The notes: generated by a model not told the origin, from the letters alone. A stretch of DNA of 64,000 nt from Patescibacteria group bacterium (GCA_035291665.1 DATDRP010000006.1:9786-73785); one strand, 5' to 3'; counted from the stretch's first letter, positions 15,832 through 47,400 are shown. Made by a program: numbers and translations.

Positions 15832-16965
15832 ATGCTGGAAAATCTGCCTGAAAGCGATAAGCCACAAATCTTTGGATTTACGTCACTCGTTATTTTACCG
15901 ATCATAGTTATTCTGTTGCTGGTTGGAATATTTTTTTGGAAGTTTTATGGTTTTGGAAACTTAACAAATATTACCAATTCAGGAAAAAGGTTGCTTAATT
16001 GGAATCAGGAAAATTCGACCACAGCACTCTCTTCGGGTCAGGCAGTAAATAATCCGAAGACATTCGAATTTCAGGAAATTACAATTCCGGACTTGAGAGC
16101 ACGTACCTATCAAAGTAAATTGGGGGGACTGGAAATATTTTCCGAGGGTCCAAACTACACAAGTTATTTGACGAGCTACGATTCGGATGGGTATAGGATT
16201 AACGGTTTTTTGACAATTCCAAAAGGCGGTTCCGCAGGTGAAAAATTTCCGGCTATTGTTTTTGTCCATGGATATATTCCGCCAACTTTGTATAAAACGA
16301 CAGTTAACTATATTTCTTACGTTGATTATTTGGCGAAAAACGGATTTGTTGTTTTTAAGATCGACCTTCGGGGTCATGACGAATCAGAGGGTGGTGCAGG
16401 AGGGGCTTATTATTCGGATGATTATGTTGTCGACACGCTTAATGCGGTCGATGCACTGAAAAAAAGCGATTTTGTTGATCCTGGAGCGGTTGGACTTTGG
16501 GGTCATAGCATGGCAGGAAATGTTACATTCCGAAGTTTTGTTGTAGCAAAAAACATTCCGGCAATTGTGATCTGGGCTGGAGCAGGGTATACATATACCG
16601 ACCTTCAAGATTACATGATTAATGATAATAGCTACCAGCCTCAACCAACCGGTACACAAAGAGCTCGCGACAGACAAAGATTAAGAGATGCTTATGGCGA
16701 TTTTGATCCGGAAAATTGGTTTTGGAAACAGGTTCCTGCGACAAATTATCTTGATGGAGTGACGGGAGCGATTCAACTCAATCATGCTGTTGATGACAAT
16801 GTTGTGAGCATTGATTACAGCCGGAATTTGATGAAAGTCTTAGACGATTCTCAAATAAAGCATGAGCTTAATGAATATCCGATCGGAGGGCACAATCTCA
16901 CAGGGTCAAGTTTTAACCAAGCAATGCAGAAGACGGTTGAATTTTTCAAAACAAACTTACCTTAG
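15832..16965 (+). CDS. alpha/beta-hydrolase fold protein (dienelactone hydrolase/S9-like), membrane-anchored
   Basis: An N-terminal TM, an oxyanion region VFVHGYIP, and a nucleophile elbow GLWGHSMAG (GxSxG). Confidence 0.6.
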   Translation: MLENLPESDKPQIFGFTSLVILPIIVILLLVGIFFWKFYGFGNLTNITNSGKRLLNWNQENSTTALSSGQAVNNPKTFEFQEITIPDLRARTYQSKLGGLEIFSEGPNYTSYLTSYDSDGYRINGFLTIPKGGSAGEKFPAIVFVHGYIPPTLYKTTVNYISYVDYLAKNGFVVFKIDLRGHDESEGGAGGAYYSDDYVVDTLNAVDALKKSDFVDPGAVGLWGHSMAGNVTFRSFVVAKNIPAIVIWAGAGYTYTDLQDYMINDNSYQPQPTGTQRARDRQRLRDAYGDFDPENWFWKQVPATNYLDGVTGAIQLNHAVDDNVVSIDYSRNLMKVLDDSQIKHELNEYPIGGHNLTGSSFNQAMQKTVEFFKTNLP

Positions 16966-17294
16966 GTGTGTTTGACGTTATTCAAATTGGAATTACTCAA
17001 ATATGCTTGAAGTTTTTTAGTAAATTCAGAATCAGGTAGTTCCTGTTTGGCCAGATTCAGTAGTTTTTCAGCCTCTTCCCGCGAGGCGGGTCGATTAACA
17101 GATTTTATAATATCGGTAACCTCATGAACGAAAAGTGATTCTTTATCATCTCTAACCCAGCCGGTTTTGCCGGGTACTAAACTTCGGCCGAAATTAATTG
17201 ATGAGTAAGTAAGCCGGGACTTTAGCGGCAAGTCTTTAATTAAACAAATTCCCATACCGTTTCCCCATAAATTCAAACGATTAGCCTCAATCAT
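16962..17294 (-). CDS. hypothetical protein (110 aa)
   Basis: Intact ORF with no motif recognised. Confidence 0.3.
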   Translation of the reverse strand: MIEANRLNLWGNGMGICLIKDLPLKSRLTYSSINFGRSLVPGKTGWVRDDKESLFVHEVTDIIKSVNRPASREEAEKLLNLAKQELPDSEFTKKLQAYLSNSNLNNVKHT

Positions 17295-18877: not shown

Positions 18878-19423
18878 GTGTCTGTAAATATTACATATTT
18901 TGTTCACGGAACCACCATAGATAACGAGAAGGATATATCCTCGGGTTGGTCGGATGCCGAACTTTCAAAATTAGGCAAAAAACAATCAAGAGAGTTGGTT
19001 GAAAAAATAACGAATATTAAATTTAATGTTATATTTTGTTCAGACCTCAAAAGAGCCGTTGACTCTGCAAATATCACCTTCGGTAGGAACGTTGAAATTA
19101 TTAGTGACGCGAGATTACGGGAATGTAATTATGGAGATCTTAACGGCATGCTTTCGAATGTAGTCGAACCGCTTCAGGAAGAAAATATTACAAAAAGATT
19201 TCCCAATGGTGAGAGTTATGAAGATGTTAAAGAAAGGATTCAGCATTTTTTGGAATTCTTAAAAAAGAATTATGATGGTAAACATATTGGGATTGTCGTC
19301 CACAAAGCACCTCAATTAGCTCTTGACGTTTTGCTAAAAGGAAAAACTTGGGAGCAAGCATTTGCAGAGGATTGGAGAAAGAATAAAGCCTGGCAACCAG
19401 GTTGGGATTATCTTCTCGAATAA
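18878..19423 (+). CDS. histidine phosphatase superfamily (PGAM/SixA-like) protein
   Basis: GTG start. YFVHGTTIDNE...GWSDAELSKLGKKQSREL resembles the RHGxT...G...QA motif. Moderate similarity only. Confidence 0.5.
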   Translation: MSVNITYFVHGTTIDNEKDISSGWSDAELSKLGKKQSRELVEKITNIKFNVIFCSDLKRAVDSANITFGRNVEIISDARLRECNYGDLNGMLSNVVEPLQEENITKRFPNGESYEDVKERIQHFLEFLKKNYDGKHIGIVVHKAPQLALDVLLKGKTWEQAFAEDWRKNKAWQPGWDYLLE

Positions 19424-19488
19424 TTTGCTATGGAACGTCTGACGTTCTCTGAGGAAGGTTTGACGTTCTTCAAACTAACTTTGAAGAG
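19424..19488. repeat. intergenic repeat A (tttgctatggaacgtctgacgttctctgaggaaggTTTGACGTTCTTCAAACTAActttgaagag)
   Basis: Begins immediately after the stop at 19423. The 5' 45 nt recur at 20719-20763 and the GTTCTTCAAA(T/C)TA(G/A) core recurs at 20806-20836, 21469-21490, 22078-22097 and 22747-22778. Confidence 0.7.
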
Positions 19489-19501
19489 TATTTAAAGATT
19501 T

Positions 19502-20359
19502 TCAAGTTTTAAGCAATTTTCTTTTGGCGTCTTCAGCAAGTTGGTGGTACTCGTCAACGATTGGTGTAACCAATTCCAGTCCTGTATCGAGATCTATACT
19601 CGTGATTACACCTATTATTCCACCATCTTCTGTAACAACAGCGGCACCACTTGAACCACCCCCCGAATTCATTGTTGTCTTATAACACAAATTACCATCA
19701 TAATCTTTTGCATAAATATTTTCTGATAAATTAAACTTAAGCGGATTGATTCTGTCGTGTTTTTCAGCACTTCCTGCGAATGCGAGCGAGTACAATAGAT
19801 CATGTGAATTAGGTGTCCAATTATCTTTTATTGGAATTACAGGTAATTTGGTATCTTGAAGTATATTATTTAAACGAAAAGCTAACACTCCGATATCTTT
19901 TTTGTTGTGTGATGCGGTAACAAATTCATTTTTAGGAATTTCAATCAGTTTGCGATTTAGATGTGGTTGGAAAATATTAATATGTTCCGCATGTTTAAGT
20001 TCCTTTATAACATGCTTAGCCGATAAACACATTCCTATATTTGTTATCTTGTCCACTTCCATCAATGTGGTTGATCCAAATCCAATTAGAGTGTCATTTG
20101 TTATTAAATCCAGAACTCCTGCTGTTTCTATTATTTTTTCAGGTATCAGTAACATTTCTGGGATAGTGCCTACGGGGCGTGTAATGTCAGTTGCTTTTAC
20201 TGATGCTTCCGCTACATTTCTAAAATTGATCACATTCACCATATCAATAAATTTATTGACCATGTCACTAACCACATATGTAATAGCACCCCCATAGAGA
20301 ATTATTTTAATTGCGTTTTTTCTACCTATTGGATTGGTTTCTTTAGACATATCGGTCAT
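19502..20359 (-). CDS. trypsin-like (S1/HtrA-type) serine peptidase-like protein
   Basis: Possible catalytic triad context SAKHV...NKKDIGVLAF...MNSGGGSSGAAV (GNSGG-like, as in HtrA). Divergent, so the assignment is tentative. Confidence 0.4.
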   Translation of the reverse strand: MTDMSKETNPIGRKNAIKIILYGGAITYVVSDMVNKFIDMVNVINFRNVAEASVKATDITRPVGTIPEMLLIPEKIIETAGVLDLITNDTLIGFGSTTLMEVDKITNIGMCLSAKHVIKELKHAEHINIFQPHLNRKLIEIPKNEFVTASHNKKDIGVLAFRLNNILQDTKLPVIPIKDNWTPNSHDLLYSLAFAGSAEKHDRINPLKFNLSENIYAKDYDGNLCYKTTMNSGGGSSGAAVVTEDGGIIGVITSIDLDTGLELVTPIVDEYHQLAEDAKRKLLKT

Positions 20360-20388
20360 TATATCCTATAAGATCTTTTTATTGAAGT

Positions 20389-20718
20389 TTGTCTTCAGAT
20401 AAGCCTCTGAATCCTTCGACAAAACTTAAGCTCGTGATAAAATCATGTCTCATGAAAGAGCAATTATTAATATGTTCAGGAGAACATTGGGAAGGAAATG
20501 ATTTGATGGGGATAAGCATTCATATTAATAAGCTTGATGGGGATAATTTGGGAAACTTTGTGGGGTATATGAGTATAAAACCAATGGGTATAAATACGGC
20601 TGTTGAGATTGCTATGCGATCCTTAGAACAATGTGGTTATAAGACGCTAGCGATTAAGGATGGTAAATTAATTGATAGTGACGGACAAAAAATAAATGCA
20701 CCTTTTATAAAAAAATAA
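20389..20718 (+). CDS. hypothetical small protein (109 aa)
   Basis: Intact ORF immediately followed by repeat B. Confidence 0.3.
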   Translation: MSSDKPLNPSTKLKLVIKSCLMKEQLLICSGEHWEGNDLMGISIHINKLDGDNLGNFVGYMSIKPMGINTAVEIAMRSLEQCGYKTLAIKDGKLIDSDGQKINAPFIKK

Positions 20719-20836
20719 TTTGCTATGGAACGTCTGAAGTTCTCCGAGGGAAGTTTGACTGAGCCCAGTCAAACTGGGTTGTCGAGCTAGACTCGATCTG
20801 ACTTGGTTTGACGTTCTTCGAATTAACTCAAAGTCG
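20719..20836. repeat. intergenic repeat B (copy of A carrying a 46-nt insertion with hairpins cccagtcaaactggg and tcgagctagactcga)
   Basis: tttgctatggaacgtctgaagttctccgagggaagtttgac + insertion + ggtttgacgttcttcgaattaactcaaagtcg, compared directly with repeat A. Confidence 0.7.
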
Positions 20837-20839
20837 GTG

Positions 20840-21433
20840 TTATTTATGCATTTCTTTCTGCAAAACTTTGATTTCTGATATTAGTTTTTTAGAAAACGAT
20901 TTGGGGTATTTTTTTAGTAGCTCCAACTCGCCTGCATTCCTATTTGTTTTGGACATACCCCTTTTGTGTTTATCCTGAAACGCTTGCCATTTTTTGTATC
21001 CGCTTTCAGTTAAGTGCATTGACCCTGTACACTTTTTGCTTTTGCAGAAACATCGATGAGGGCAGGGATTGCAATTCATTTTTGGGGGAAGCAGATAGGA
21101 AATGGTTAACTCACTACCTTTCCTGATATTTTTTAAAGCAAAAACAACGGTGTGGTTTTTGTATTTTATAATCCAGCAGTTTGGGGAGCAGGAGTGGTTA
21201 AGAAGGTGTACTCCGGATATTTTTAAGTCGGGGTAAATACCCAACTCATCGTTGTAATACATTAAATAAAGTTCTCTCTTTTCTTTGTCAAAATCGAAAT
21301 CTAATAGCTGCACTAATTTACCCACATAATCACCGATGAGTGCTCCCTGTCTAATTGGTTTTCTGGCAAAAACACCCCTTCCTTTATTCTTAGTCTTTCT
21401 GATTTTCCAGAAACTAGCAGGTATTAAAAACAT
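20840..21433 (-). CDS. SET-domain protein-lysine methyltransferase-like protein with Cys-rich post-SET
   Basis: GRGVFARKPIRQGALIGDYVGKL...NHSCSPNCWI...LKNIRKGSELTISY, then CNPCPHRCFCKSKKC. These are the canonical SET motifs (NHSC, ELTxxY). Confidence 0.75.
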   Translation of the reverse strand: MFLIPASFWKIRKTKNKGRGVFARKPIRQGALIGDYVGKLVQLLDFDFDKEKRELYLMYYNDELGIYPDLKISGVHLLNHSCSPNCWIIKYKNHTVVFALKNIRKGSELTISYLLPPKMNCNPCPHRCFCKSKKCTGSMHLTESGYKKWQAFQDKHKRGMSKTNRNAGELELLKKYPKSFSKKLISEIKVLQKEMHK

Positions 21434-21468
21434 AAGTCAATTTAGCATACATTTTCAATTTTAGTTCT

Positions 21469-21506
21469 TGTTTGTCTTCAAATTAGCTCCGAAACCTTGT
21501 TATAAT
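21469..21506 (+). promoter_or_regulatory. repeat D (TGTCTTCAAATTAGCTCC) plus an extended -10 element TTGtTATAAT, 4 nt upstream of ATG (leaderless-type promoter)
   Basis: TGnTATAAT at 21497-21506 and ATG at 21510. The repeat core is shared with A, B, C and E. Confidence 0.45.
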
Positions 21507-21509
21507 TCC

Positions 21510-22076
21510 ATGATGAATACTAAAGAGATTTTTATTAAAGCAGGCGCTTTTCATAAAGGGCATGTTGAATTTAAAAACGGAATGCACGGTGATGGGTGGT
21601 TGCAAAAGGATTTGGTTGTAAAAAACCCTATATTCCTTGACGACGTAGCAAAACTTCAGGCAGAGAAAATACTGGAGAGTTATCCTAACGTAGATTTATT
21701 AATGGGACCGATAACTGGAGGGGCAATTATTGCAAGCCACGTCGCAAAATACATTCATAAAGAATTTGGTGTTATCTTGGGTAAACAAGACCCTGTACTA
21801 TTTCACGACATGAATATTCCAACCCCAGGAGATAAGGTTGTAATAGTTGAAGATATTATTTCTAGTGGCACTGATATGAAAAGGTATCTCAACTTTTTCA
21901 AAGAAAAGAATGTGGAAGTTGTCGGGGTAAGTACATGGCTTAATAGACAAGAAAATATATTTAATGGAGTGAAAGTAATCAGTTTGCTGGGAAATAATTT
22001 TAATCTTTTCCCAAAAGAGGAATGCCCTTTTTGTGCCAAAGGAGAAAAAATTGAATTTGTAAATGTTAGAGAATAA
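21510..22076 (+). CDS. type I phosphoribosyltransferase, orotate PRTase (PyrE)-like
   Basis: The PRPP-binding motif VVIVEDIISSGTDM and an N-terminal GAFHKGHVEFKNGMHGDGWL-like region are present. The track ORF starts at 21468, but its first 14 codons are the repeat and promoter, so the start is set at 21510. Confidence 0.6.
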   Translation: MMNTKEIFIKAGAFHKGHVEFKNGMHGDGWLQKDLVVKNPIFLDDVAKLQAEKILESYPNVDLLMGPITGGAIIASHVAKYIHKEFGVILGKQDPVLFHDMNIPTPGDKVVIVEDIISSGTDMKRYLNFFKEKNVEVVGVSTWLNRQENIFNGVKVISLLGNNFNLFPKEECPFCAKGEKIEFVNVRE

Positions 22077-22077
22077 T

Positions 22078-22117
22078 GTGTCTTCAAATTATCTCCAAAA
22101 TGAATTCATGATAAAAT
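22078..22117 (+). promoter_or_regulatory. repeat E (GTGTCTTCAAATTATCTCC) followed by an extended -10-like element TGaTAAAAT
   Basis: Shares the core with repeats A-D and lies upstream of the 22134 gene. Confidence 0.4.
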
Positions 22118-22133
22118 ACGCCTTACTATTCGG

Positions 22134-22727
22134 ATGAGTATGACTGTAGAAACTGAGACAGTAAGACAAATATCGTCAGTTGGCAGGGTTCTAACGTCTT
22201 ACAAAGATTTAGACGGAAAATTAATATCTTTGTTACTTGCTCCGGATGAAGCCAATAAAATTTCAATAGTTGGTTTTAAACTATTTTTCCCAAAGGATAA
22301 TGACGAAGTATACTACGGGTTCTTGTGCTCTCCCTACATCGCAAAGAATGTTGCCTTTTCTTTTGATGAATCAGAAAACTTATTAGTTACACACCCATTG
22401 GGGAAAAACATTAGCTTAGGAAACCCCAGTCTTGGAGGATTGAGTCCGAATGGAGACTATAAAGTAAAGGATATCGAGGGTGGAAAGTTGGGATCAGGAC
22501 TGAGGGCTTTTTCGGGAAGAAAAAGACGGGAATTAGGTTTGGAATACAGAAGTTTATTTGCCGATCCGATTGTTGACAATGGAAATAGATCTGTTGTACT
22601 TAGCGGTCTTTATTATGATAGTGGTAAGAGATTAAGAGTTTTAAAACTGGTTAAAACATCGCGCACTGGTTCTTATAATTTTTTAGCAGAAGAAGTGATG
22701 GAGATCATCAATAATGGGAAGACTTGA
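22134..22727 (+). CDS. hypothetical protein (197 aa)
   Basis: Intact ORF with no motif recognised. Confidence 0.35.
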   Translation: MSMTVETETVRQISSVGRVLTSYKDLDGKLISLLLAPDEANKISIVGFKLFFPKDNDEVYYGFLCSPYIAKNVAFSFDESENLLVTHPLGKNISLGNPSLGGLSPNGDYKVKDIEGGKLGSGLRAFSGRKRRELGLEYRSLFADPIVDNGNRSVVLSGLYYDSGKRLRVLKLVKTSRTGSYNFLAEEVMEIINNGKT

Positions 22728-22746
22728 GGAGGGTGATTTGTCCTGG

Positions 22747-22778
22747 GGACGTTTGATGTTCTTCAAATTAGATTTTTT
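22747..22778. repeat. intergenic repeat C (ggacgTTTGATGTTCTTCAAATTAGatttttt)
   Basis: The same core as A, B, D and E, located after the stop at 22727 and followed by TATAAT at 22775-22780. Confidence 0.6.
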
Positions 22779-22884
22779 CATATAATTATGTAAATGGGAT
22801 GTAAGGAAGAACCAATTTCCTTTTCAGAATTCAGATGTGACGGACACACGCGTTTTTTCTACCATCTCTTGATATAATTTATAA

Positions 22885-23550
22885 ATGGCTTACGAATTAT
22901 CAGATGATTTTAAAAGCCTTAATAAAAATATTTGGTCGTCGAAACGTTTAACGAAATCAAATTGGAAAATTTCAAAGTACCAGGGGAAATCTGCAATTCA
23001 AATTACAGTGCACAAAGGTGATTATCAAATGGATGGTGGGGATGGTCATTTAACAGATAGAGCAGAATTAACAGAAGAAAAGTCTTTATGGGTACCGACC
23101 GGAACACCAATTTGGTATTCATTTTACTTTGTTTTTCCGAAAGATTTTTTAATTCAGGATAACAGACTTGTGTTTGCACAATGGAAGCAGTCAACCCAAG
23201 AACCGGAATCTCCATTTTTATCGTTCAGATATGTGGATGGTAAACTATATTTTCAGATTGTATACAATGATGAAAGAGAGAAATTTTATTGTACGGAAAA
23301 AGAGTGGCGTGGGAATTGGCACAACGCACTTGTTTATTACAAACTAGACTCAAATTTTCGGGGAGAAGTAAAAGCATGGGTGGATGAAAAAATAATTTCA
23401 GATTATTCAGGTAGATTGGGTTCCTCTCAATCTATATCCGATCCTTACTTCAAGATGGGATTATATAGAGATCAAATTGAGGAACATCAGACAATTTATC
23501 TTGCAGATTTTAAACGTAGCACTTCAAAAGAATTTTGTGAAAAAATATAA
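22885..23550 (+). CDS. concanavalin-like jelly-roll protein, polysaccharide lyase family 7 (alginate lyase)-like
   Basis: RAELTE ... FAQWKQ ... YFKMGLYRDQ echo the PL7 signature blocks R(S/T)EL(R), QIH and YFKAG(V/I)Y(N)Q. No signal peptide. Tentative. Confidence 0.4.
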   Translation: MAYELSDDFKSLNKNIWSSKRLTKSNWKISKYQGKSAIQITVHKGDYQMDGGDGHLTDRAELTEEKSLWVPTGTPIWYSFYFVFPKDFLIQDNRLVFAQWKQSTQEPESPFLSFRYVDGKLYFQIVYNDEREKFYCTEKEWRGNWHNALVYYKLDSNFRGEVKAWVDEKIISDYSGRLGSSQSISDPYFKMGLYRDQIEEHQTIYLADFKRSTSKEFCEKI

Positions 23551-23571
23551 AAACTCTTAACTTTTTAATCT

Positions 23572-23613
23572 GCGTTCAAGAAAACCCCGCCCTTTAGGGG
23601 TGGGGGATGTCAT
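23572..23613. repeat. partial palindromic element (gcgttcaagaaaaccccgccctttaggggtggggGATGTCAT)
   Basis: Shares gcgttcaagaaaac with 5322-5335, the aaccccgccc...gggg hairpin with 27852-27875, and ends in the GGATGTCAT half-site. It sits in a convergent intergenic gap. Confidence 0.55.
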
Positions 23614-23618
23614 AAATG

Positions 23619-24329
23619 TTAGTATTTCTGTGCCCTGACGATTAATGTTGCTCCGAGTGTGGGGAATAAACCTGTCAACAGTTTTGAAAACAGATGCATC
23701 CTCCGATTGCCAAACTCGATTGTGATTGCTTGCGTACGAAGTTTTATATTATTAAACCCGCACAAAATTAACGCATTTTTTAAAGAATCAAATGTGAACG
23801 GTCGTATATGTAGATATAAAAACGGATGAATCGGGGTGGTGTGGCGAGGTGACTTTCCGAATAAAAACTTTATTCTATCATCGACCCTTGCAAGATTTGG
23901 AGTTGTAAGTATTAAATATCCTTTCGATTTAAGAACACGATTTATTTCGTTGAGAAACTTTTTTGTATCGATTAGATGCTCAATTATTTCTCCTGCAAAA
24001 ACAAAATCGAAACTTGCGTCATGATATGGAAGAGTTTTGGAAACATCGCCAAATTTTGTGATTACTCCTCGTTTTTCGGCTTCTTTTAAGGCATCTTTTG
24101 CGCCGTCAATACCATAAACTTTAAGTCCGAGTTTTTTTATTATTTTTTCTTCGTATAATCCAATTGAACAGGCAATGCTTAAAAGCCTTTGCGGTTTTTT
24201 GTTGTTTACAACTTCTTTTATTAAATCAATTGCGATGTCTCCTCGTTTTTGATGAGTCTCACTAAAGAGATATTCTGTCTCTTCCTTTTTGTTATATTCG
24301 TGGGTGTTGTAATCAAAAAGAGTATCCAC
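23619..24329 (-). CDS. class I SAM-dependent methyltransferase (type 11-like)
   Basis: LLSIACSIGLYEEKI (motif I region), FDFVFAGEIIEHL, VLKSKGYLILTTPN. Confidence 0.75.
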   Translation of the reverse strand: MDTLFDYNTHEYNKKEETEYLFSETHQKRGDIAIDLIKEVVNNKKPQRLLSIACSIGLYEEKIIKKLGLKVYGIDGAKDALKEAEKRGVITKFGDVSKTLPYHDASFDFVFAGEIIEHLIDTKKFLNEINRVLKSKGYLILTTPNLARVDDRIKFLFGKSPRHTTPIHPFLYLHIRPFTFDSLKNALILCGFNNIKLRTQAITIEFGNRRMHLFSKLLTGLFPTLGATLIVRAQKY

Positions 24330-24692
24330 TGAGTGAAGTATAACATTGTAAAAAAGAATCCACTTACTTTTCGGCGATGATAGTTAATAAGAGAAGATAT
24401 TATGAATCCCATGTTAAAATATATTCATGACATGTCCGAAATGTGGAAAGAAAATGTTTCTGAAAGGTAAAGACTTTAGTTATGACTATAAAGTTAAACC
24501 AAAGAAGAAATACAAAAGGAGTATTTACTGGTGTAAGACAGATGATGTTTGGGTAAATTTGGAAACCCCTTATAAAAAATAGATTTTCATTTCCTCCGCA
24601 CTTTTTCTGTAGGACTGAGAAATTAACTGTTATATTTTAAATTAAAACTTGTATAGTAAATAAAAGTTGACAAAGAAAGTACGTTCAATTTG

Positions 24693-25505
24693 ATGAATCA
24701 AACAGTTCTAATTAATCATCCAATAGTTGCTGCGCTTTTTGCCGGCCTTTTTGCTTGGGGAATAACGGCGCTAGGCGCGGCGGGTGTATTTATCTTTAGA
24801 GCGGTGACACAAAAATTATTGGATGCGATGCTTGGGTTTGCCGCTGGAGTCATGATCGCGGCCAGTTTTTGGTCTCTACTTGCTCCTTCTATAGAACTCA
24901 GTGAACAGTTAGGTGTGACAAAATGGGTACCCCCTGCGGTAGGTTTCCTTGTCGGTGGAGGTTTTTTATGGCTTGTGGACAAAATTCTGCCGCATTTGAA
25001 CGTCGTTCAATCGCGGTCGCGCCCCGAGGGATTACCTACAGAATGGCATACTACGGTTCTTCTATTTTTGGCTATCACTTTTCATAATTTTCCCGAAGGA
25101 TTAGCTGTTGGCGTTGCTTTTGGGGCGGCTTCTGCAGGTATTCCCGGAGCAACTATTGCCGGTGCTATAGCCCTTGCCATCGGAATCGGAATTCAAAATT
25201 TCCCTGAAGGATTTGCGGTTTCGATGCCCTTTAGACGTGTGGGATTAGGGAAGTTAAAGAGCTTCCTGTTTGGCCAGGGATCGGCAATTATTGAGCCCAT
25301 CGCCGCGGTTATCGGAGCAGTCGGTGTTTTGGCTATGCGTCCACTACTTCCTTATGCGCTAGCGTTTGCGGCGGGGGCAATGATTTACGTGTCAGTCGAA
25401 GAAATAATTCCCGAATCGCAGAAGAGCTCTACCGATGTCGCAACAATTGGCGCAATGCTGGGTTTTACAATAATGATGATTCTTGATGTTGCGCTGGGTC
25501 AGTAA
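24693..25505 (+). CDS. ZIP family metal (zinc) transporter, ZupT-like
   Basis: HNFPEGLAVGVAFG and QNFPEGFAVSMPF are the ZIP signature helices. TTGACA at 24666-24671 lies upstream. The track ORF starts at TTG 24690; ATG 24693 is used. Confidence 0.8.
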   Translation: MNQTVLINHPIVAALFAGLFAWGITALGAAGVFIFRAVTQKLLDAMLGFAAGVMIAASFWSLLAPSIELSEQLGVTKWVPPAVGFLVGGGFLWLVDKILPHLNVVQSRSRPEGLPTEWHTTVLLFLAITFHNFPEGLAVGVAFGAASAGIPGATIAGAIALAIGIGIQNFPEGFAVSMPFRRVGLGKLKSFLFGQGSAIIEPIAAVIGAVGVLAMRPLLPYALAFAAGAMIYVSVEEIIPESQKSSTDVATIGAMLGFTIMMILDVALGQ

Positions 25506-25573
25506 TCGAGAACTCATTACCTCCGCGTCTTCTGGCTTAAATTCCTCAGCTACTTTATTGATATACTTTCTTT

Positions 25574-26206: not shown

Positions 26207-26288
26207 CTTTAGAAACCATTTCCTCCTTGCTTGCGCAGGCAAGCGCGGCTTCTGAACTTTTACGATTGAAACTTGATATAATTCGGTT

Positions 26289-26998: not shown

Positions 26999-28588
26999 CT
27001 AAACAGGATTAGTTAGGGTGTATTTATCTCTTATTGCTTGGGTGTCAACATCTTTTATATCTTTATACTGCAGATACTCCAATAAATTGAAACCACGGAT
27101 GTCGGGATTTTTGTATTTGTTTTGCAGATATTCAATTTTAAAGAGTAAGATCCATAAACCATCAGATTCGGCTTGTTTTTTCTCCGTTTCGGTTACCGGA
27201 CCGGAAGATCTGACAATCTCATTCAGATGAGTTTTATACGAAAGTGAATCGCTCGAAAGTCTTGAAAGATATTGCATGTCAACTCCTTGACCGGTTGTTG
27301 CCCGGTGGAAATGGTAAATAAGGTAATCAAAATTTGCCAAATTGATAAGAATTAAAATTAATCCCGTATAGATTACGGACTTGGTAAGAAAGTATTTTTT
27401 CTCAATATTTTTCAGGAATGTATATAAATAAATTGTGAATATCCCCAAAATCCAGGTTGCAACTGCGAATCCGTAAAGTCTTTTATAAGTAAAACCCCAG
27501 GCGCTTGAATATTCATAAACACTTTTGTATGCCATGAATGCGAGAAAAATTCCTTCAACAAGAAGGACAAGCGCCAGTTTTTGATTATACTTTTTCTTTT
27601 CTTTGTCGGCGTAGAGAAGTGCCAAAACAATTACTGCAACAATGGAGAGCTGGGTAAATACTTCATTCGCATAATTTGAATAAGTATATCCAAGAGCGCT
27701 TAGGGTTTCTTGAGATGAAAAATATAGCTGGAATTGGGTAATGAAAAAAATTAGAAGTACTGCCGAAACCGCGATTTTGGGTATTAATAAGTTTAAGCCT
27801 AGTCTATTAGTAATCTTAAAACCTTCTTTTTTATTCATAGCAATTTCAAGGAAACCCCGCCCTTGGCGGGGAGGAATTGAACTTGATATGTCATCCTCCT
27901 TCAGAGGGAACCACGGACCGTGGTCCGTGGAGGATGTCATGAAAGTTGCTACCCTGGGTATTAAGAAGGCTGAACCTATAAAAAAGATTAATCTGATAAT
28001 CCACTGAAATATAGCCTCAGTTAATTTGATATTTCCCAAACCTATTAAATCGGCAACCTCAAGTAAAAGTTTTTCAAAGAATGGATTGGCGGATGCAAGA
28101 AGCGGCAGGATTACGGCCAAAATCGCCAATGTGATAAGGGTGATGGCGATTGTGTTAATTGTGCTTTCGCGCTTTCTTTCATTAGCAACAGGTTTCTTGA
28201 ATTCCAATTGATATTCATTTCGTATGAATACACTTTGCAGGAAAAGTATTAAGGGTGCAAAAATTAATGATAATATACTTTCCGGATCCTCCTTTTTAGT
28301 CAGGACAAAAAGAATACCGAAGTAAAAAATTGCGAGGAGATTAAGCATTATTACCGACGGCTCACTTCGGATCGTTAGTGCGATCGATAATATTAATGCG
28401 ATCGCGAAAAATGCTGTGGTGTCCGGGGTTTTGTCGTTTTTTATATAGAAAGCAAGGAAGGCAAATGAGATTAACGAAATTGAGAGGCCTAGATGGGGGA
28501 AGAATCCGAATGGAATTGATAACAAAGAAAAGGCGGCGCACGCGAAAATAATTAAAGCGGATATCTTACCCTTTTGAGTCAATTGCAT
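26999..28588 (-). CDS. polytopic membrane protein (529 aa), function unknown; carries an in-frame palindromic-element insertion
   Basis: More than 12 hydrophobic helices. The hydrophilic loop FMTSSTDHGPWFPLKEDDISSSIPPRQGRGFLEIAMNKK is encoded entirely by the repeat element at 27850-27940, and the reading frame is preserved. Confidence 0.5.
   Translation of the reverse strand: MQLTQKGKISALIIFACAAFSLLSIPFGFFPHLGLSISLISFAFLAFYIKNDKTPDTTAFFAIALILSIALTIRSEPSVIMLNLLAIFYFGILFVLTKKEDPESILSLIFAPLILFLQSVFIRNEYQLEFKKPVANERKRESTINTIAITLITLAILAVILPLLASANPFFEKLLLEVADLIGLGNIKLTEAIFQWIIRLIFFIGSAFLIPRVATFMTSSTDHGPWFPLKEDDISSSIPPRQGRGFLEIAMNKKEGFKITNRLGLNLLIPKIAVSAVLLIFFITQFQLYFSSQETLSALGYTYSNYANEVFTQLSIVAVIVLALLYADKEKKKYNQKLALVLLVEGIFLAFMAYKSVYEYSSAWGFTYKRLYGFAVATWILGIFTIYLYTFLKNIEKKYFLTKSVIYTGLILILINLANFDYLIYHFHRATTGQGVDMQYLSRLSSDSLSYKTHLNEIVRSSGPVTETEKKQAESDGLWILLFKIEYLQNKYKNPDIRGFNLLEYLQYKDIKDVDTQAIRDKYTLTNPV
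27850..27940. repeat. palindromic repeat element, copy 3 (module aaccccgccc...ggcgggg plus ATGTCATCCTCC...GGAGGATGTCAT) inside a CDS
   Basis: ATGTCATCCTCC at 27888-27899, inner hairpin cacggacc/ggtccgtg, GGAGGATGTCAT at 27929-27940, and ggaaaccccgcccttggcggggagga at 27850-27875. Confidence 0.75.
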
Positions 28589-31675: not shown

Positions 31676-32398
31676 TTGACTAACAAAGAGTTTGTAATCA
31701 TACTAACACCAATAAGTACTATGGATTTCTATTTTGACAAAGATTTAGATAAGTTATTTTCCGCCGGAGTAGAAGTTAAATATAAAAAAGGTGAAATCAT
31801 ACTCCGCGCCGAAGACGAACCTCAGGGTATTTATTATCTCAAAAAAGGATATGTCAAATTATATAATCTATCAATCGAAGGCAGAGAACAGATTATAAGC
31901 ATTTTTAAACCTCGTTCATACTTTCCGATTGCCTGGATTTTGGCAGAAGTGAAAAACACCTCTTACTATGAAGCCTTAACAGGTGTAAAGGTTTTAAAAG
32001 TTCCATCAAGTAAAGTCATAAAGTTTTTGGAAGACAATCCGAAATCTACAATGCTTTTAGCAAAAAGGTTGTCGTCGGGACTCAACGGTCTCGCCAAACT
32101 GATAAACATAATATTTTTGGCGTCAGCCAAACAGAGGGTTGCCTATGTTTTAGTTCAGTTTGCAGCGAGGTTCGGGGAGCATGTAAACGGAAAAAAGATA
32201 AAAATAATTCTACCTGTTACTCATCAGCTCATTTCAAACTATGCTGGACTGGTTCGGGAAACGGTCAGTCTCGAGATGGAGAGACTTAGAAAACAGAAAG
32301 TGATTGATTACTCTCGAAGTTCGGTAACAGTTATGGATTTATCCAAACTTCAGGGACTTTCACAGGCGGGTAGTGAAGCTGATGGGGTTGAAGTTTAA
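31676..32398 (+). CDS. Crp/Fnr family transcriptional regulator
   Basis: cNMP-binding beta-barrel (GEIILRAEDEPQGIYYLKKGYVKLY) and a C-terminal HTH (ISNYAGLVRETVSLEMERLRKQKVI). Confidence 0.7.
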   Translation: MTNKEFVIILTPISTMDFYFDKDLDKLFSAGVEVKYKKGEIILRAEDEPQGIYYLKKGYVKLYNLSIEGREQIISIFKPRSYFPIAWILAEVKNTSYYEALTGVKVLKVPSSKVIKFLEDNPKSTMLLAKRLSSGLNGLAKLINIIFLASAKQRVAYVLVQFAARFGEHVNGKKIKIILPVTHQLISNYAGLVRETVSLEMERLRKQKVIDYSRSSVTVMDLSKLQGLSQAGSEADGVEV

Positions 32399-41067: not shown

Positions 41068-44000
41068 ATGGTTTGTTTAAAGCAATTGTATATAAATTAC
41101 CGACTCGATTCTAGAGAAAATAAAGTTGTCCAGCAAAAATTCCGTGTGAATTTACTTCTTTCTTTTATTTTCGCTTTTTTTATGTTCTTAGTTTACCCAA
41201 CTTCAACTTTAGCAACAAACTACTATGTGGATGCTACAAATGGTGATGACAATGATAACGGTACTTCAACCGATACTCCCTGGCAGACGATCAATAAAGT
41301 AAACATTTCGAGTTTCAGTGCAGGGGACCAGATTCTGTTTAAGAAAGGCGAAATATGGAGAGAACAATTGACGGTTCCTTCAAGCGGTACTGCCGGAAAT
41401 CCAATTGTCTTTGGGGCTTACAGTAGCGGGGTAAACCCGATTATTAATGGTTCAGACGTTGTATCTTCATGGACTGCAGACATTGCCAGTTATCAAACAA
41501 CTTTTGATATGGATGGATGGGGTTGCTGGGGTAACTACAGTACGGCTTCAGATGCAAGTGGGGTGACTTATAGGACTTCATTTCTTCAATCTGCTTTTTC
41601 CGGTTCTTCTATAAGAATTACTGTTAAAGCGGCAGCGGGTGGAAGCGTAACAATTGATAATTCTTCAGTGTGCATAGCAAATGGTGGGTGGAATGATTGC
41701 GACTCTACACCTACGAGAATTACATGGGATGGGGGAAATAATAGTGCGACAATTTCAGCAGGAGCTTCCAAAACGAGCGACCCAATTACTTTCTCTTGGA
41801 GCACCTCTAATATTAATGCTGTCAGTGTTTATGTTTCCTCTGGCAGTTTAGTTGGATATTATAGTACCGTTCCTGCTTATCTATATAGATATACCTACAC
41901 TGGGGATGTCGCTTTGAATCAGAATATGTTGGGTGATGAAAATCAGATAAATGATAGCGAGATTTTGAAAGTTGAAACATCTACAGGTTTAGCTAATGTT
42001 TGGAATGCGACGGTTGCAGATACACCAAATCAGGTTTTCAAAGACGGAGTGCTTGCCACAAAAGGAGCCTCCAAGGCCGCTTTAACACAAAGTCAATGGT
42101 ATGCTTCAGGGACAACTCTTTCTTATTATGAAAGTGCCGGTAATCCCGGCAGTCAGGCTTACGCGATAGAAGCTTCTACAAGAGATTATGGAATTTATTT
42201 CAACGGTCAAAATAAGATTACGGTAGATGGATTGACAGTAACAAAAGCCAATTTGTACGGGATAAATATTGGACACGATTCAAGCCACACCTTAGACAAC
42301 GCAATTGTTCAAAATTCACTCGTCCAATACAGTTATGACGCCGGTATTTTTTCTTGGGTCCCAACATCTTTAAACGGGTCTTTGGCAGCAACAATCCTGA
42401 ATAATGAAGTATCTTATAATGCGATCCAAGATGGAATAGACGGCGGAAACGCGCCTACTGGTATAGAAATACTCGGCTCTAACTCAACCGGACCTACGCT
42501 AGTTCAGGGAAATAATATCCACCACAACTATTGGGGAATGGAATTTGACCAGAATTCCGATCATTCGACTGCGCAATACAACAGTATTCACGATAATAAT
42601 AAGATGGGGATGAATATCGACAATTCGGATAACAACACGTTCCAATATAATCTGGTCTATAATCACCCTGTCAGTTGGGGGTTGAGAATATGGGATGCCG
42701 CTGCGAATGGGATGACGGGCAATGTTGTCTATAATAATGTCTTTTATGGCAATTCTATCGGCATCATTGTTGAGAACGAACAAACAAACCTGAAAATAAA
42801 AAATAATATTCTCCTTGCTAACACCGCCAACACAAGTACCAGCGAGATAACCCTTGAAAGTGGCCATACATATACCGGACTTGATATTGACTACAATTCT
42901 TATTATCGTGAATCCGGAACAACTTACTGGAAGTATGGGGCTACAAATTATTCTTTTACGGACTGGAAAACTAATTCAGGTCAAGATGCTAATTCCGTAA
43001 ATTCTGACCCGTTATTTACCGACGCTACCGGATATGATTTTACATTACAATCCGTTTCTCCCGTCATTAATAGTGGAACTGATGTCAGTTTAACAACTGA
43101 TTATGCAGGAACAATCGTACCACAGGGTACTACACCTGACATTGGAGCATATGAATTTTCACTGCCCTCTAGCGCTTCTTCTTTGTTACAGTATCAGTCT
43201 GATGGAACAAGTTCGATTTCCACCGGTGGAAAACTCGGGAGTGGCTCAACCGTTGTCCTTAAATCTAGCATGTCATCTGCCAATAGTTCAGACTCGTTAA
43301 CACCGCAGTTTGAGGTCAGACCGGTTGGAACTGCTTTTTCCAATAGTGCTACCCATTTAGGCAATGCAATTTCATATTCAGGAACTTCTGTTATAGGAAA
43401 CGTCACTGTTTCCGGACTTGGAGCAGGAAATTATCATTGGCAAGCTAGAGTAGATAATCCCGCCGGCCAATCTTCCTGGGTATCATACGGAGGAAATTCG
43501 GAAGATGCAACCGATTTTTCGATTGATTATTCAATTGCTTCTCCAGCACCTTGTAACGATTCTGCTCCCACATCTGCACCCTGGCTTTACGCGGCTACTG
43601 TAAAAGGAAAGGATGCTATTTTACTTCAGTTTACTCAGGCTAAAGACCCAGTTAGTGAATATGTTGTGGAATACGGGGAAGAGTCAGGAAAATATGTATA
43701 CGCCATGGCAGACATAGGCGGAAAAGGCACTACTTCATACACTGTAGGTTATTTACAACCTAACAAAATTTTTTATTTCAGAGTTCGAGCAGGGAACGGG
43801 TGTGCAACAGGTCTTTGGTCAAACGAGATATCAGCTAAAACTCTTTCCGGTTCTTCCACTGCATCTAATGATGAAGGATTAGAAACTGAAATTATTGAAA
43901 CTGAAATTAGGGAAAGAGAAGTAGAGGAAAGTAACGAAGAAATTAAAAAAGAAGAGCAACCGGAAGTTTTGGGGGTTGATGTGAGATTAAAAGTTGTTAA

Positions 44001-44337
44001 CGAAGAAAAAGAACCTATAAAAGGAGCGAAAGTAACACTATATTCAGAACCTAGGGAAGTAACAACAAACAAAGACGGCATTTCATTATTTGAAAATGTA
44101 GAACCAGGAGACCATAAAGTTGTCATTGCCTACAACGGTCAAACCGGAGAACAGAATATAAACATCCAAGATGATTCAGGTATCGAGGAAGTAGATTTTA
44201 CAATTCAGCTTAACACAACCTCCCCTTTTAAAGATTCTAAGGTAATTGCGGTGGTATCTTTCTTGGTTCTGGTGGTAATAGTATTGGTGATACTGTTTGC
44301 AAAAAAATCTTCAAATAAAAAACCTGCCAAGTTATAA
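41068..44337 (+). CDS. large cell-surface protein: signal peptide, right-handed parallel beta-helix (PbH1) repeats, FN3-like domain, acidic linker, CarboxypepD_reg-like domain, C-terminal TM anchor
   Basis: 1089 aa. PbH1-type repeats (NNIHHNYWGMEFDQNSDHSTAQYNSIHDNNKMGMNIDNSDNNTFQYNLVYNH), an FN3-like domain (YVVEYGEESGKYVYAMADIGGKGTTSYTVGYLQPNKIFYFRVRAGN), VTLYSEPREVTTNKDGISLFENVEPGDHKVV, and terminal VIAVVSFLVLVVIVLVILFAKK. Confidence 0.6.
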   Translation: MVCLKQLYINYRLDSRENKVVQQKFRVNLLLSFIFAFFMFLVYPTSTLATNYYVDATNGDDNDNGTSTDTPWQTINKVNISSFSAGDQILFKKGEIWREQLTVPSSGTAGNPIVFGAYSSGVNPIINGSDVVSSWTADIASYQTTFDMDGWGCWGNYSTASDASGVTYRTSFLQSAFSGSSIRITVKAAAGGSVTIDNSSVCIANGGWNDCDSTPTRITWDGGNNSATISAGASKTSDPITFSWSTSNINAVSVYVSSGSLVGYYSTVPAYLYRYTYTGDVALNQNMLGDENQINDSEILKVETSTGLANVWNATVADTPNQVFKDGVLATKGASKAALTQSQWYASGTTLSYYESAGNPGSQAYAIEASTRDYGIYFNGQNKITVDGLTVTKANLYGINIGHDSSHTLDNAIVQNSLVQYSYDAGIFSWVPTSLNGSLAATILNNEVSYNAIQDGIDGGNAPTGIEILGSNSTGPTLVQGNNIHHNYWGMEFDQNSDHSTAQYNSIHDNNKMGMNIDNSDNNTFQYNLVYNHPVSWGLRIWDAAANGMTGNVVYNNVFYGNSIGIIVENEQTNLKIKNNILLANTANTSTSEITLESGHTYTGLDIDYNSYYRESGTTYWKYGATNYSFTDWKTNSGQDANSVNSDPLFTDATGYDFTLQSVSPVINSGTDVSLTTDYAGTIVPQGTTPDIGAYEFSLPSSASSLLQYQSDGTSSISTGGKLGSGSTVVLKSSMSSANSSDSLTPQFEVRPVGTAFSNSATHLGNAISYSGTSVIGNVTVSGLGAGNYHWQARVDNPAGQSSWVSYGGNSEDATDFSIDYSIASPAPCNDSAPTSAPWLYAATVKGKDAILLQFTQAKDPVSEYVVEYGEESGKYVYAMADIGGKGTTSYTVGYLQPNKIFYFRVRAGNGCATGLWSNEISAKTLSGSSTASNDEGLETEIIETEIREREVEESNEEIKKEEQPEVLGVDVRLKVVNEEKEPIKGAKVTLYSEPREVTTNKDGISLFENVEPGDHKVVIAYNGQTGEQNINIQDDSGIEEVDFTIQLNTTSPFKDSKVIAVVSFLVLVVIVLVILFAKKSSNKKPAKL

Positions 44338-44404: not shown

Positions 44405-47400
44405 ATGTTAGAATTGGTGACGATGGATGGTGAGAAAAAATTAAACAAAGAACAACTTGAAGCAATAAAGTATAATCCGCCGGCCGGCGGTGGACCTCTT
44501 CTTATAATTGCAGGAGCAGGGACAGGAAAGACCACTGTTGTTACTGAACGAATAAAATACCTTATCCAAAAAAAGCTGGCAAAATCTTCGGAAATCTTAG
44601 CTCTCACCTTTACTGAAAAAGCAAGCGCCGAAATGCAGGAAAGGGTTGATGTTGCTCTCCCCTATGGATATATACAAATGTGGATTTCAACTTTCCATTC
44701 TTTTTGCGACCGGATACTTCGAAGAGAAGCTCTCCATATCGGACTTAATCCCGCATACAAATTGAATACCCAAGCCGAGTCAATAGCGTTTGTCAGAAAA
44801 AATTTATTTAACCCGCCTGCCGGACGGAATAGGTTTGAGCTTAATTATTTCCGCCCATTGGGGAATCCAAACAAATTTGTTGAAGGGATGTTAACCCATT
44901 TTTCAAGACTCCAAGATGAAGACATAAACCCAAGCGAATATCTCGCTTGGGTAAAAGCACAAAGTAAAAAGAGATCCCAAAAAAAGGTTCATGCCTCACA
45001 AGGCATGAAGTCTTTACGGGATGACTCAGCTGGTTTTGAAAGTTTACCATCTGAGTCAAAAGAGATTGAAAAATGGGAAGAGTTGGCAAATGCTTATAAG
45101 GTTTATGAGAAATTAAAAGCTGAAGAAGGCGTGATGGATTTTGGTGATTTGATTACCAATACATTGAAACTTTTTCGTTCCCGACCTAACGTTTTGGCGG
45201 AATACAAAAAGCAATTTAAATATATTCTTGTTGATGAGTTCCAGGATACTAATATTGCTCAATACGAACTTCTGAAACTTCTTGCTCCACCGTCAAAAAC
45301 CGCAAATCTCAATGTTGTGGGAGATGACTCACAATCAATTTACAAGTTCAGAGGTGCTGCAATTTCAAATATTTTATATTTTCAAAAGGACTATAAGAAT
45401 GCCAAAACTATAGTTCTTACGCAAAATTACCGTTCGACGCAAAAGATCCTTGATGCCTCATACAAGCTTATTCAATTTAATAACCCCGACACTCTGGAAG
45501 CGAGACTTGGGATCGATAAAAACTTAAAAAGCGCCAAAAAAAGTATAGGGGAAGATGTGATTTTTATTCATAAAGACAGGGTTGAAGACGAAGCGGAAGG
45601 CGTGGTGAGGGAAATTCAGAAGCTTACTACCCACAACCCACCACCCACAACTTATAACTATAAGGATGTTGCCATTCTTGTTCGGGCCAACAACCATTCT
45701 GATCCGTTTATTCGTGCGCTTCAAAGATATGGGATCCCCTATCAATTTTTGGGTCCGGGAAAGCTTTTCAAACAACCGGAGATAGTTGATCTTATTGCTT
45801 ACTTAAAAATTCTTTACGATTTTGAAGATAGTGTTTCGATGTATCGAATTTTATCAAATGATTATTTTGAGATAAGCGACCGGGATCTGATTAAATTAGC
45901 AAATTATGCAAGAAAGAAAAATATATCGCTTTTTGAAGCATCGGAACAGATTGCAGATGTCTATGTATCGGAAGCTTCAAAAGAGAAAATACAAGGACTT
46001 ATAGACCTTATTAGTAGAAGCCAGAAGCAAATTAAGAAATCGTCCGCCGGACAACTGCTTTACGATTTTTTAGAAAAAACCGGCATGCTGCAGGGGCTTT
46101 TGTTACCGGACGATGTCGAAGCGGATAAAAAGGCAAAAAATATTTCCAAGTTATTTGATAAGTTGAAAACCTATGAGGTTGAACACGAAGATGCATCCGT
46201 TAAGGCTATTGTTGATTGGATCGATCTTGCAAGTGAATTAGGGGAATCTCCTTTGGCAGCAGATTCCGATTGGACAGAAATTAATGCTGTCAACATCTTA
46301 ACCATTCATTCAGCAAAAGGTCTTGAGTTTCCGGTTGTTTTTTTGGTGAATCTTGTATCACAGAGATTCCCGACAATTGAAAGAAGAGAGCAGATCCCGA
46401 TTCCGGAAGGTTTGATAAAGGAATTTTTGCCGGTTGGAGATTACCATACCCAGGAAGAAAGGAGACTTTTTTATGTCGGGATGACGCGGGCAAAAGAAAA
46501 ACTGTATTTGACGGCCTCCAATTATTACGGGGAGGGAAAGCGTGAGAAAAAAATATCGCCTTTTGTTTTTGAAGCGCTTGGAGACAGCGTTCTGAAAAGC
46601 GAGCGGTCCAAAGATGATAGTCAGCAGCTAACTTTTTTGGACTACAAACCACAAGAATCAAGCTCACTACCCACTACCCACTACCCACAACCCATTCATA
46701 TCGACTATCTTTCATATTCTCAGATCGAAACTTTCCGTATTTGCCCCCTCCATTTCAAATTAAGTTATATTTACAGACTTCCAACTCCCCCCACCTCATC
46801 ACAAAGCTTCGGCAACACATTTCATCAAACTATGAAAAGTTTTTACGAAAAAATTAAAGAAGGAGCAAAACCTTCGAAGTCTTTGATGGAAAAAACTCTG
46901 ACTGAGCACTGGATTAATGAGGGCTATTTGAGTAAGTCTCACGAAAAAAAATCGTACGAAAAAGCCGTATCTTTCTTACATTTTTATCTTTCGAATTATT
47001 TCAATCCGAAAAATCTTCCGGAAGCCCTGGAACAGCCGTTCTTGATACAGCTTAAAGACCAATTCGAAGGTAAATATCAATTCATAAAAATTGGCGGCAA
47101 AATCGACAGGGTAAATGTTGCTGGCGATTCATTGGAAATAATTGATTATAAAACGGGCGCAAATCCAATTACTCAAAAAGAAGCCGATACGAATTTACAG
47201 CTTTCAATCTATGCTCTTGCTGCGTCACAAATTCCGGAACTTCCTTTCGGAAAGAACCCGAAAGATGTAAAACTATCGTTAATGTATTTTGATACTCCGC
47301 AGATTGTGTCAACAACAAGATCAAGTGCTCAGTTACAGGATGCAATCAGGCAGATCTTTAGTTACAAAAAGCAGATCGAAGAGTCCGATTTCAAATGCTC

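Follow-up and report, generated by a model that had tools for sequence, protein, structure and literature searches.

A possible chromosomal gene-cassette array with a 42-nt imperfect palindrome at its gene boundaries in Candidatus Woesebacteria

Sedentary chromosomal integrons and clusters of attC sites lacking integron-integrases (CALINs) hold small and unrelated, often orphan or toxin-antitoxin, genes between imperfect palindromic repeats. The repeats are co-directed, have conserved arms and a variable centre, resemble each other within a genome and often overlap the stop codon of an open reading frame (ORF), and the gene content varies between related genomes at a fixed chromosomal location. 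These features recur in a 64,000-nt stretch of DNA (the window) from Candidatus Woesebacteria (candidate phyla radiation, CPR/Microgenomates) of groundwater origin, in which an imperfectly palindromic element of ~42 nt separates unrelated genes. The chances are considered about even that this segment belongs to a chromosomal array of gene cassettes that is typical of one Woesebacteria clade, and in which the element is the cassette junction or recombination site.

The resemblance to integrons and CALINs is incomplete. The repeat described here measures ~42 nt (23 nt when collapsed) as against at least ~57 nt for attC, with a centre of usually 3 nt instead of 20-100 nt; AAC/GTT triplets are lacking in the outer boxes, no IntI gene or attI was seen, many genes lie on the opposite strand, and promoter-like sequence occurs on the right arm. 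Repetitive extragenic palindromic (REP) sequences, with bacterial interspersed mosaic elements (BIME) and the REPINs mobilised by REP-associated tyrosine transposases (RAYT), are also imperfect palindromes of 20-40 nt that lie just past stop codons and form size-variant families, but they are found genome-wide, in both orientations and with no tie to variable genes, whereas the element keeps to one array and one orientation. The pdif modules of Acinetobacter plasmids likewise combine gene modules, including toxin-antitoxin genes, and short recombination-type sites with no adjacent recombinase; pdif, however, is a 28-bp site (11-6-11) in alternating inverted copies, whereas the element forms ~42-nt direct repeats on a chromosome, and neither Xer arms nor an 11-6-11 organisation is visible in it by inspection. 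The Correia elements of Neisseria, which are miniature inverted-repeat transposable elements (MITEs), share with it small inverted repeats, TA ends and the capacity to give neighbouring genes promoters or terminators, but they are 100-150 nt long, dispersed in both orientations and do not delimit swapped genes. No description of the element or of the array was found in the searchable literature. In the CPR bacteria (Patescibacteria), which have tiny genomes where few mobile elements can be recognised, and for which genetics in culture is lacking, the exchange of accessory genes is poorly understood.

A first-pass annotation had delimited a segment at 19424-23620 with copies of a 14-nt core between unrelated genes. 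All five copies that it reported lie where it had placed them, on the + strand, but the core, though real, is only the right arm of the ~42-nt element, and the segment limits fall short of the full extent, as a sixth copy lies outside them at 16951-16992. The consensus, drawn from copies of several genomes, is AATAATTTGTCCTnGGrACGTTTGACGTyCTTCAAATTAGCT, with outer inverted arms (TAATTTG/CAAATTA), a bulge of 4-5 nt and an inner palindrome (GGrACGT-NNN-ACGTyCy). Two covariance models were scored on the window and on the loci of relatives, R1, built from four copies with c0 and c5 among its seeds, and a second model, R2. The six copies in the window, all on the + strand between 16951 and 22773 (5.8 kb), are as follows.

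16951..16992, + strand: c0, full-length but degenerate, ACAAACTTACCTTAGGTGTGTTTGACGTTATTCAAATTGGAA; R1 50.0 bits, R2 43.2 bits (partly by construction); repeat family D1
19419..19480, + strand: c1, expanded, with the inner unit tandemly duplicated; R2 29.4 bits; family D11
20714..20830, + strand: c2, expanded, with a c1-type left arm and a ~50-nt insertion carrying two hairpins after GTTTGAC
21468..21490, + strand: c3, collapsed, TTGTTTG / TCTT / CAAATTAGCTCC, between the divergently oriented SET and phosphoribosyltransferase (PRTase) genes
22072..22096, + strand: c4, collapsed, AATAATGTG / TCTT / CAAATTATCTCC, with the TAA stop of the PRTase gene (22074-22076) inside
22732..22773, + strand: c5, canonical 42-nt, GGTGATTTGTCCTGGGGACGTTTGATGTTCTTCAAATTAGAT; R1 55.6 bits, R2 54.0 bits (partly by construction)

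The copies thus take three forms, canonical (c5, c0), expanded (c1, c2) and collapsed (c3, c4), in which the arms are constant and the centre varies: insertions occur at one internal position in c1, c2 and a copy of the related locus L130, and collapsed forms are widespread. The 45-nt 5' arm reported as common to two copies was recovered in c1 and c2 (19419-19464 and 20714-20759; 91% identical, family D11), as was the hairpin-bearing insertion of c2, which spans ~46-53 nt at 20760-20812 and holds two small hairpins; the insertion in L130 is independent and lies at the matching internal position. Only the two outer arms (TTTGTC / TTCAAATTAGCT) are retained in c3 and c4, and collapsed forms identical to c3 are present in L120, L125, L129 and L130, while near-identical counterparts of c5 exist in L097 and L006. 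Exact matches to the 11-mer TCTTCAAAYTA number four in the window, always on the + strand within 19467-22770, against 0.26 expected (0/100 shuffles reach four), and the 14-mer core occurs with at most one mismatch three times against 0.24 expected. Beyond these six, searches of the other ~58 kb of the window with a profile hidden Markov model and a covariance model revealed no copy, and covariance models found none in ~85 other loci (1.3 Mb), which rules out the general promoter or terminator motif that the first-pass annotation had named as the alternative to be excluded. A weak match to the collapsed form (E = 0.12) was noted at 31727-31758 (- strand), in the 5' end of a Crp/Fnr-family gene.

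A scan of metagenomic DNA for the core gave 29 single matches with clear homology only in contigs from Hainich; a Hainich groundwater contig bearing the element and a profile search then led to two copies in L006 (Woesebacteria RIFCSPLOWO2_01_FULL_39_23), the nearest species representative, whose ABC-F protein is ~65-67% identical to that of the window. Related loci were obtained via the neighbouring CopC-cupredoxin gene and scanned with the covariance model. R1 and R2 detect the element in the window and in L006, L097, L120, L122, L123, L125, L129 and L130; L100/L104, scoring 30.2 bits with R2, may hold a diverged copy. The cupredoxin loci of the more distant relatives L126 and L127 have no element. 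A copper-responsive operator of the cupredoxin gene was rejected, the element being missing in these two loci and degenerate at best in L129.

In the loci of the relatives, too, almost all boundaries between genes or operons are marked by the element, which keeps one orientation irrespective of the strand of the genes, and what it sets apart across the loci are toxin-antitoxin pairs, GNAT, NUDIX, histidine-phosphatase (HisPhos), cupredoxin and orphan genes. L120 has at least 12 copies, full or collapsed, from HisPhos to HigBA, and its toxin-antitoxin pairs are bracketed by copies as units. Its gene order, each slash marking an element, is:

HisPhos / MOSC / DUF5674+80aa / cupredoxin / GNAT / 54aa+68aa
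(continued) / BrnT-CopG / ADH / AHSA1 / NUDIX / M48 / HigBA

The genes between the copies change from genome to genome. The flanks of L122 and L123 are 88-90% identical, whereas the 1.8-3 kb between BlaI and AHSA1 consist of entirely different genes, in which only the element copies align, and one breakpoint of this variable block coincides with an element that is full in L122 and collapsed in L123. Ahead of orthologous cupredoxin genes (67% identical), the element is present in six genomes, and a possible degenerate remnant of it in a seventh, L129, the gene that comes after it being different in each. A 99-aa ORF is bracketed by two copies in a Hainich contig where L006 has one copy, and AHSA1 is present or absent beside a copy, depending on the genome. 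Conversely, homologous genes recur beside elements in differing contexts, namely HisPhos (three), the 197-aa orphan gene of the window and DUF5674 with a small ORF; the HisPhos homologues of L120 (73% identical) and L130 (80%) lie beside element copies with other neighbour genes. The element itself is ~80-90% identical between genomes in which the adjacent proteins are only 47-73% identical, and in a comparison of half-elements, which gave no information on a crossover point, the bulge variants track the genome lineage, not the cassette. The location of the array is syntenic, downstream of a PMT2 glycosyltransferase block in L006 and L120 as well as in the window, but the segment itself is not, as both sides of ABC-F already differ at 65-71% ABC-F identity. 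Contigs carrying the exact HisPhos protein (Rifle-type datasets) all have the identical arrangement. The comparison with relatives thus supports the earlier view of the segment, that of a cassette array or recombination hotspot and not of an operon, with swapped genes in eight other Woesebacteria loci; the suggestions of defence and of site-specific capture do not share this support and are taken up below.

All copies within each locus lie on one strand (6, at least 12, 2, 3, 2, 2, 2 ...), and ~40% of the genes flanking them are on the strand opposite to the element. The strand concordance of ~29 copies (7/9 loci) has a probability of ~2e-7 under random orientation. Four copies in other loci have both neighbours on the opposite strand, and c0, c1 and c2, half of those in the window, face a convergent gene. 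The GC skew of the element strand is positive in 7/7 loci of the orientation count.

The genes that border or lie between the copies in the window are the following, the element being referred to as type A where it is set beside a second motif (type B) described below.

15832..16965, + strand: alpha/beta-hydrolase (S9/S15-like; abhydrolase) gene, left edge of the array
18878..19423, + strand: histidine-phosphatase gene (His_Phos_1, by Pfam)
19502-20359, - strand: trypsin-like peptidase gene, interval c1-c2; weak Trypsin_2 match, under the Pfam cut-off
20389-20718, + strand: 109-aa ORF, interval c1-c2; no Pfam family
20840..21433, - strand: SET-domain gene (by Pfam), interval c2-c3, on the strand opposite to the elements
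21513..22076, + strand: phosphoribosyltransferase gene (Pribosyltran, by Pfam), interval c3-c4
22134..22727, + strand: 197-aa orphan gene, interval c4-c5
22885..23550, + strand: polysaccharide-lyase-family gene (Polysacc_lyase, by Pfam), downstream of c5 and the last to adjoin a type-A element

Pfam agrees with the gene identities first proposed for the SET, PRTase, polysaccharide-lyase and methyltransferase genes of the reported segment, whereas the proposed S1/HtrA-like peptidase has only the weak match given above. A copy had been reported at every gene boundary except the divergent gap 20359/20389; five boundaries do carry one, and the boundary between the polysaccharide-lyase and methyltransferase genes (23551-23618) does not, a different GC-rich hairpin being found there. 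The 197-aa ORF matches nothing in Pfam, PDB or PADLOC, and of 5.8 billion clustered proteins only one is homologous to it, 47% identical and located on L125, where a collapsed copy and a promoter lie upstream, a full copy downstream and the neighbours are different; the L125 contig starts inside the upstream copy. Homologues of the abhydrolase gene occur in the arrays of L122 and L123, where they adjoin the cupredoxin gene. The G+C content is 35-36% across the array (19000-25000) and 38-42% over large parts of the window outside it, and the lower value fits accessory or acquired DNA.

Both sides of the element bear a relation to the co-oriented genes. Upstream ORFs of the same orientation often end inside it, in the window and also in L120 and L125. 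The stop codon is a TAA in the AATAAT arm for HisPhos (19421-19423, in the c1 left arm AATAATTTG), the 109-aa ORF (20716-20718, in the c2 left arm) and PRTase, and a TAG in the bulge for the abhydrolase gene (16963-16965), which ends within c0 at its convergent junction with a 110-aa ORF. Ahead of a co-oriented downstream gene, an extended -10 (TGTTATAAT, TGATAAAAT, TGGTAAAAT) stands 15-17 nt beyond TTAGCT, at a distance from the start codon of 6-16 nt in the window and ~20 nt in L125. Two of these are:

21498..21506, + strand: extended -10 TGTTATAAT, 18 nt past the TTCAAA of c3 and 6 nt before the ATG of the PRTase gene
22109..22117, + strand: extended -10 TGATAAAAT, between c4 and the 197-aa ORF

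The first is the putative promoter of a leaderless PRTase gene, and its geometry recurs after element copies in L120, L123 and L125; the block AATTCATGrTAAAAT between c4 and the 197-aa ORF is common to element copies in L120 and L123. On the left side the element provides stop codons for the upstream ORF, and on the right side (TTAGCT, 15-17 nt, extended -10) it lies where the promoter of a leaderless co-oriented gene would be. An extended -10 (TGnTAnAAT) located 6-16 nt before the start, with no Shine-Dalgarno sequence, was also seen at many genes (for example window 21498-21515, 22109-22136 and 22870-22887; L006:9242-9261 and 19148-19165), a pattern which suggests that leaderless mRNAs are widespread in the lineage. 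A sigma-70 promoter of fixed geometry was rejected as the identity of the element, since TTCAAA is separated from the nearest -10-like hexamer by anything from 13 to 29 nt, and since the gene in front of three window copies is convergent.

The restriction to arrays, the single orientation, the bracketed units, the internal stop codons and the conservation above that of the adjacent proteins are the grounds on which the element is read as a junction and probably a recombination site. It would then be the point at which cassettes are gained, lost and exchanged, as attC is in sedentary chromosomal integrons. The exchange might be carried out by a recombinase encoded elsewhere in the genome; RecA-type recombination between direct copies after DNA uptake is an equally possible alternative.

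Several results weigh against this reading. The second breakpoint of the L122/L123 variable block does not lie at an element, the c0-c1 interval holds the housekeeping ABC-F gene, and the ABC-F of the nearest relative is only 73% identical, so that the comparison remains above the strain level. The link to stops and promoters also fits a purely regulatory role. No integrase, transposase or other recombinase was detected in the window, whether in the 17 kb upstream or in the 41 kb downstream, in a scan that covered ~50 of ~60 larger non-overlapping ORFs (those outside it being GroEL at 2219-3856 and the ORFs at 41068-44337, 44405-47458, 57468-59192, 59167-60795, 63191-63748 and 6637-7116), and none appears in the precomputed Pfam lists of L120-L130 and related loci; hence the site-specific capture suggested by the first-pass annotation is put forward here only conditionally. 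The canonical hallmarks of attC are AAC/GTT triplets in the outer boxes (RYYYAAC ... GTTRRRY), a variable terminal structure of 20-100 nt and a size of ~57 nt or more (PMC4889954), and the element departs from them: the triplets are absent, its outer arms being TAATTTG/CAAATTA in all copies, and its nearest GTTRRRY-like string, GTTTGAC, belongs to the inner loop and not to the 3' end. Its dyad symmetry is real, as 88% of the cells pair as against 36-55% when the partner columns are slid, but the base-pair covariation is no better than in shuffled controls, the R/Y positions of the two arms vary independently (G.T and A.C counts being 31 vs 11, or 17 vs 11 without one invariant pair) and the hairpins have a low predicted stability (-1 to -9 kcal/mol, mean z ~ -0.9). 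A folded hairpin is for these reasons plausible but not demonstrated, and the conservation of the element is mainly at the level of sequence.

The attC architecture consists of two pairs of inverted boxes with an unpaired spacer; the element does show two boxes, an asymmetric bulge (5 vs 1 nt) and a variable centre, but the centre usually has 3 nt, the total is 42 nt and the covariation is not significant. The site orientation is uniform along mostly single-gene cassettes that differ between genomes, as in CALINs. Recombination at the element, and the enzyme responsible, are nevertheless a matter of inference, since no integrase or transposase lies nearby, canonical attC features are absent and the hairpin covariation is not significant; the junction reading stays at the same level, in view also of the breakpoint off the element and of ABC-F in c0-c1.

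Several known classes of element were compared as well. No copy matched Rfam 15 at gathering or permissive thresholds, and a structured RNA was rejected on this result together with the covariation, equal to that of shuffles, and the weak fold energies. The copies do not have the form of intrinsic terminators, there being no T-run after the stem and the orientation being independent of gene strand, and a terminator scan flagged none of them except for a chance 5-bp stem at 22739. A CRISPR array was rejected, as the spacing is irregular (600-1300 nt) and every interval holds a gene. Comparison by eye with consensus sequences gave no convincing match to sigma-54, ECF, CtsR, LexA, parS, matS, IHF or dif sites, and three scans of viral contigs returned no relevant match to the element, on which ground a phage or plasmid origin was rejected.

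The same observations may be explained without recombination at the element, and the strongest such explanation, although unlikely, is that of regulatory punctuation, in which a terminator-like hairpin and a promoter insulate accessory genes and have spread by local duplication, the gene turnover being ordinary horizontal transfer that is unrelated to the element or only aided by homologous recombination between copies. Most copies overlap the stop codon of a co-oriented gene or lie directly behind it, a next gene of the same orientation has its extended -10 and start codon within 25-45 nt, and the blocks TTAGCTTCGGAGTAAAAT and AATTCATGGTAAAAT are conserved downstream. Against this, all ~30 copies of the element keep one orientation even with both neighbours opposite (four cases) or with a convergent downstream gene. 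The element also has no U-tract, its hairpins are weak, its distance to the -10 ranges over 13-29 nt, and it is absent at ~55 other window genes and in array-free relatives. The small imperfect palindrome, with inverted-repeat arms ending in TA on both sides, its extragenic position often overlapping stops, its size variants, the assembly break of L125 at a copy and the other palindromic repeat families of the same genome would suit a selfish element of REP or MITE type that multiplies locally and is mobilised by a RAYT- or IS-type (insertion sequence) enzyme encoded elsewhere. This explanation is improbable, since such an element would not be expected in a strictly uniform orientation, within a single region (5.8 kb of the 64-kb window) and at orthologous positions where it is conserved although protein identity is no more than ~65%, an uncommon situation among MITEs; moreover, neither a RAYT nor any other transposase was found among the scanned ORFs of the window.

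An operator is more improbable still. The motif TTTGA-N6-TCAAA in c0, c1 and c5 (one mismatch in c2) could be bound by a transcription factor such as the Crp/Fnr-family regulator encoded at 31676-32398 (+ strand), 9 kb from the array, with an accessory or stress regulon under its control, and the element does form a conserved island in otherwise unalignable intergenic DNA. Yet the spacer CGTTCT and both flanks are as conserved as the half-sites, the left half-site is missing from c3 and c4 as from many collapsed copies, convergent genes flank several copies, the cupredoxin orthologues of L126 and L127 have no element upstream, and a uniform orientation would not be expected. That the seven genes make up one multi-gene accessory or anti-phage defence system with incidental repeats, as the first-pass annotation had considered, hardly deserves credence: PADLOC matches the protease (RT-Protease_XI, LmuA; E ~1e-5 to 1e-6) and the methyltransferase (mad2) weakly and to generic domains only, the genes co-occur in no relative, the 197-aa gene is found elsewhere with different neighbours, and the strands alternate, each gene having its own promoter-like site. 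Punctuation, the REP/MITE explanation and the operator each account for part of the data, but none of them for uniform orientation, confinement and swapping together.

A second junction motif, type B (..ACCATTTCCTCCGCG..TTCTGAA, in fuller form (A)GAACCCATTTCCTCCGCGG..TTCTGAAtttt, sometimes with a GC hairpin inserted), accompanies the element in the window, with six matches against 0.93 expected (3/6 adjacent), and occurs also in the L120, L122, L123 and L125 arrays. In other arrays it lies on both sides of a reversed HigBA cassette, oriented as the type-A element. Its copies at gene boundaries in the window, which suggest that the accessory array continues to ~26.3 kb, and a collapsed copy are:

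22809-22834, + strand: type B, collapsed, just past c5
24586-24600, + strand: type B, boundary g18/ZIP
25513-25527, + strand: type B, boundary ZIP/VTT
26215-26262, + strand: type B, boundary VTT/MT2

Other repeats were noted in passing. GC-rich nested palindromes (TATGTCATCCTCC ... GGAGGATGTCAT) form a dispersed family (window 57-110, 5374-5425, 23579-23613 and 27848-27940), one member of which lies between the polysaccharide-lyase and methyltransferase genes, described as the only reported boundary without the main element; an arm of these palindromes resembles the left arm of c1 and c2 (ATTTGCTATGGAACGTC), and at L006:9096-9190 a collapsed main element directly abuts one of them. A structured intergenic element of ~115 nt at 5311-5425 (+ strand) of the window and L006:9133-9250 (- strand) is 86% identical between unalignable flanks, has a sub-threshold Rfam match to HgcC RNA (30 bits against a gathering score of 50) and may be an unannotated non-coding RNA or repeat. 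A DUF4153 membrane protein (ORF 26999-28588, - strand) has, relative to its L006 orthologue, a 33-aa in-frame insertion at 27797-27895 which overlaps GC-rich palindromic repeat copies and looks like a repeat element inserted in frame, as in the case of the Rickettsia palindromic elements.

The reading of the element as a cassette junction extends, more tentatively and with somewhat less than even confidence, to an integron-like gene-capture platform of the Woesebacteria, built on a hitherto undescribed ~42-nt site that would have stop codons at one end and a promoter at the opposite end, possibly with type B as a further site, and served either by a recombinase whose gene is not beside the array or by RecA, the DNA being imported from relatives. 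The array is rated as integron-like, with a non-canonical site and no adjacent integrase, and would be categorically new if its mechanism proves distinct. The element explains assembly breaks in these metagenome-assembled genomes, and its covariance model is a marker for finding such arrays. A lineage-wide hotspot of bracketed single genes and toxin-antitoxin pairs, if true, would offer a concrete and testable mechanism of gene exchange in CPR bacteria and would broaden integron-like cassette platforms beyond IntI and attC; as a gene-capture platform, it would be a main route of accessory-gene exchange in these reduced genomes.

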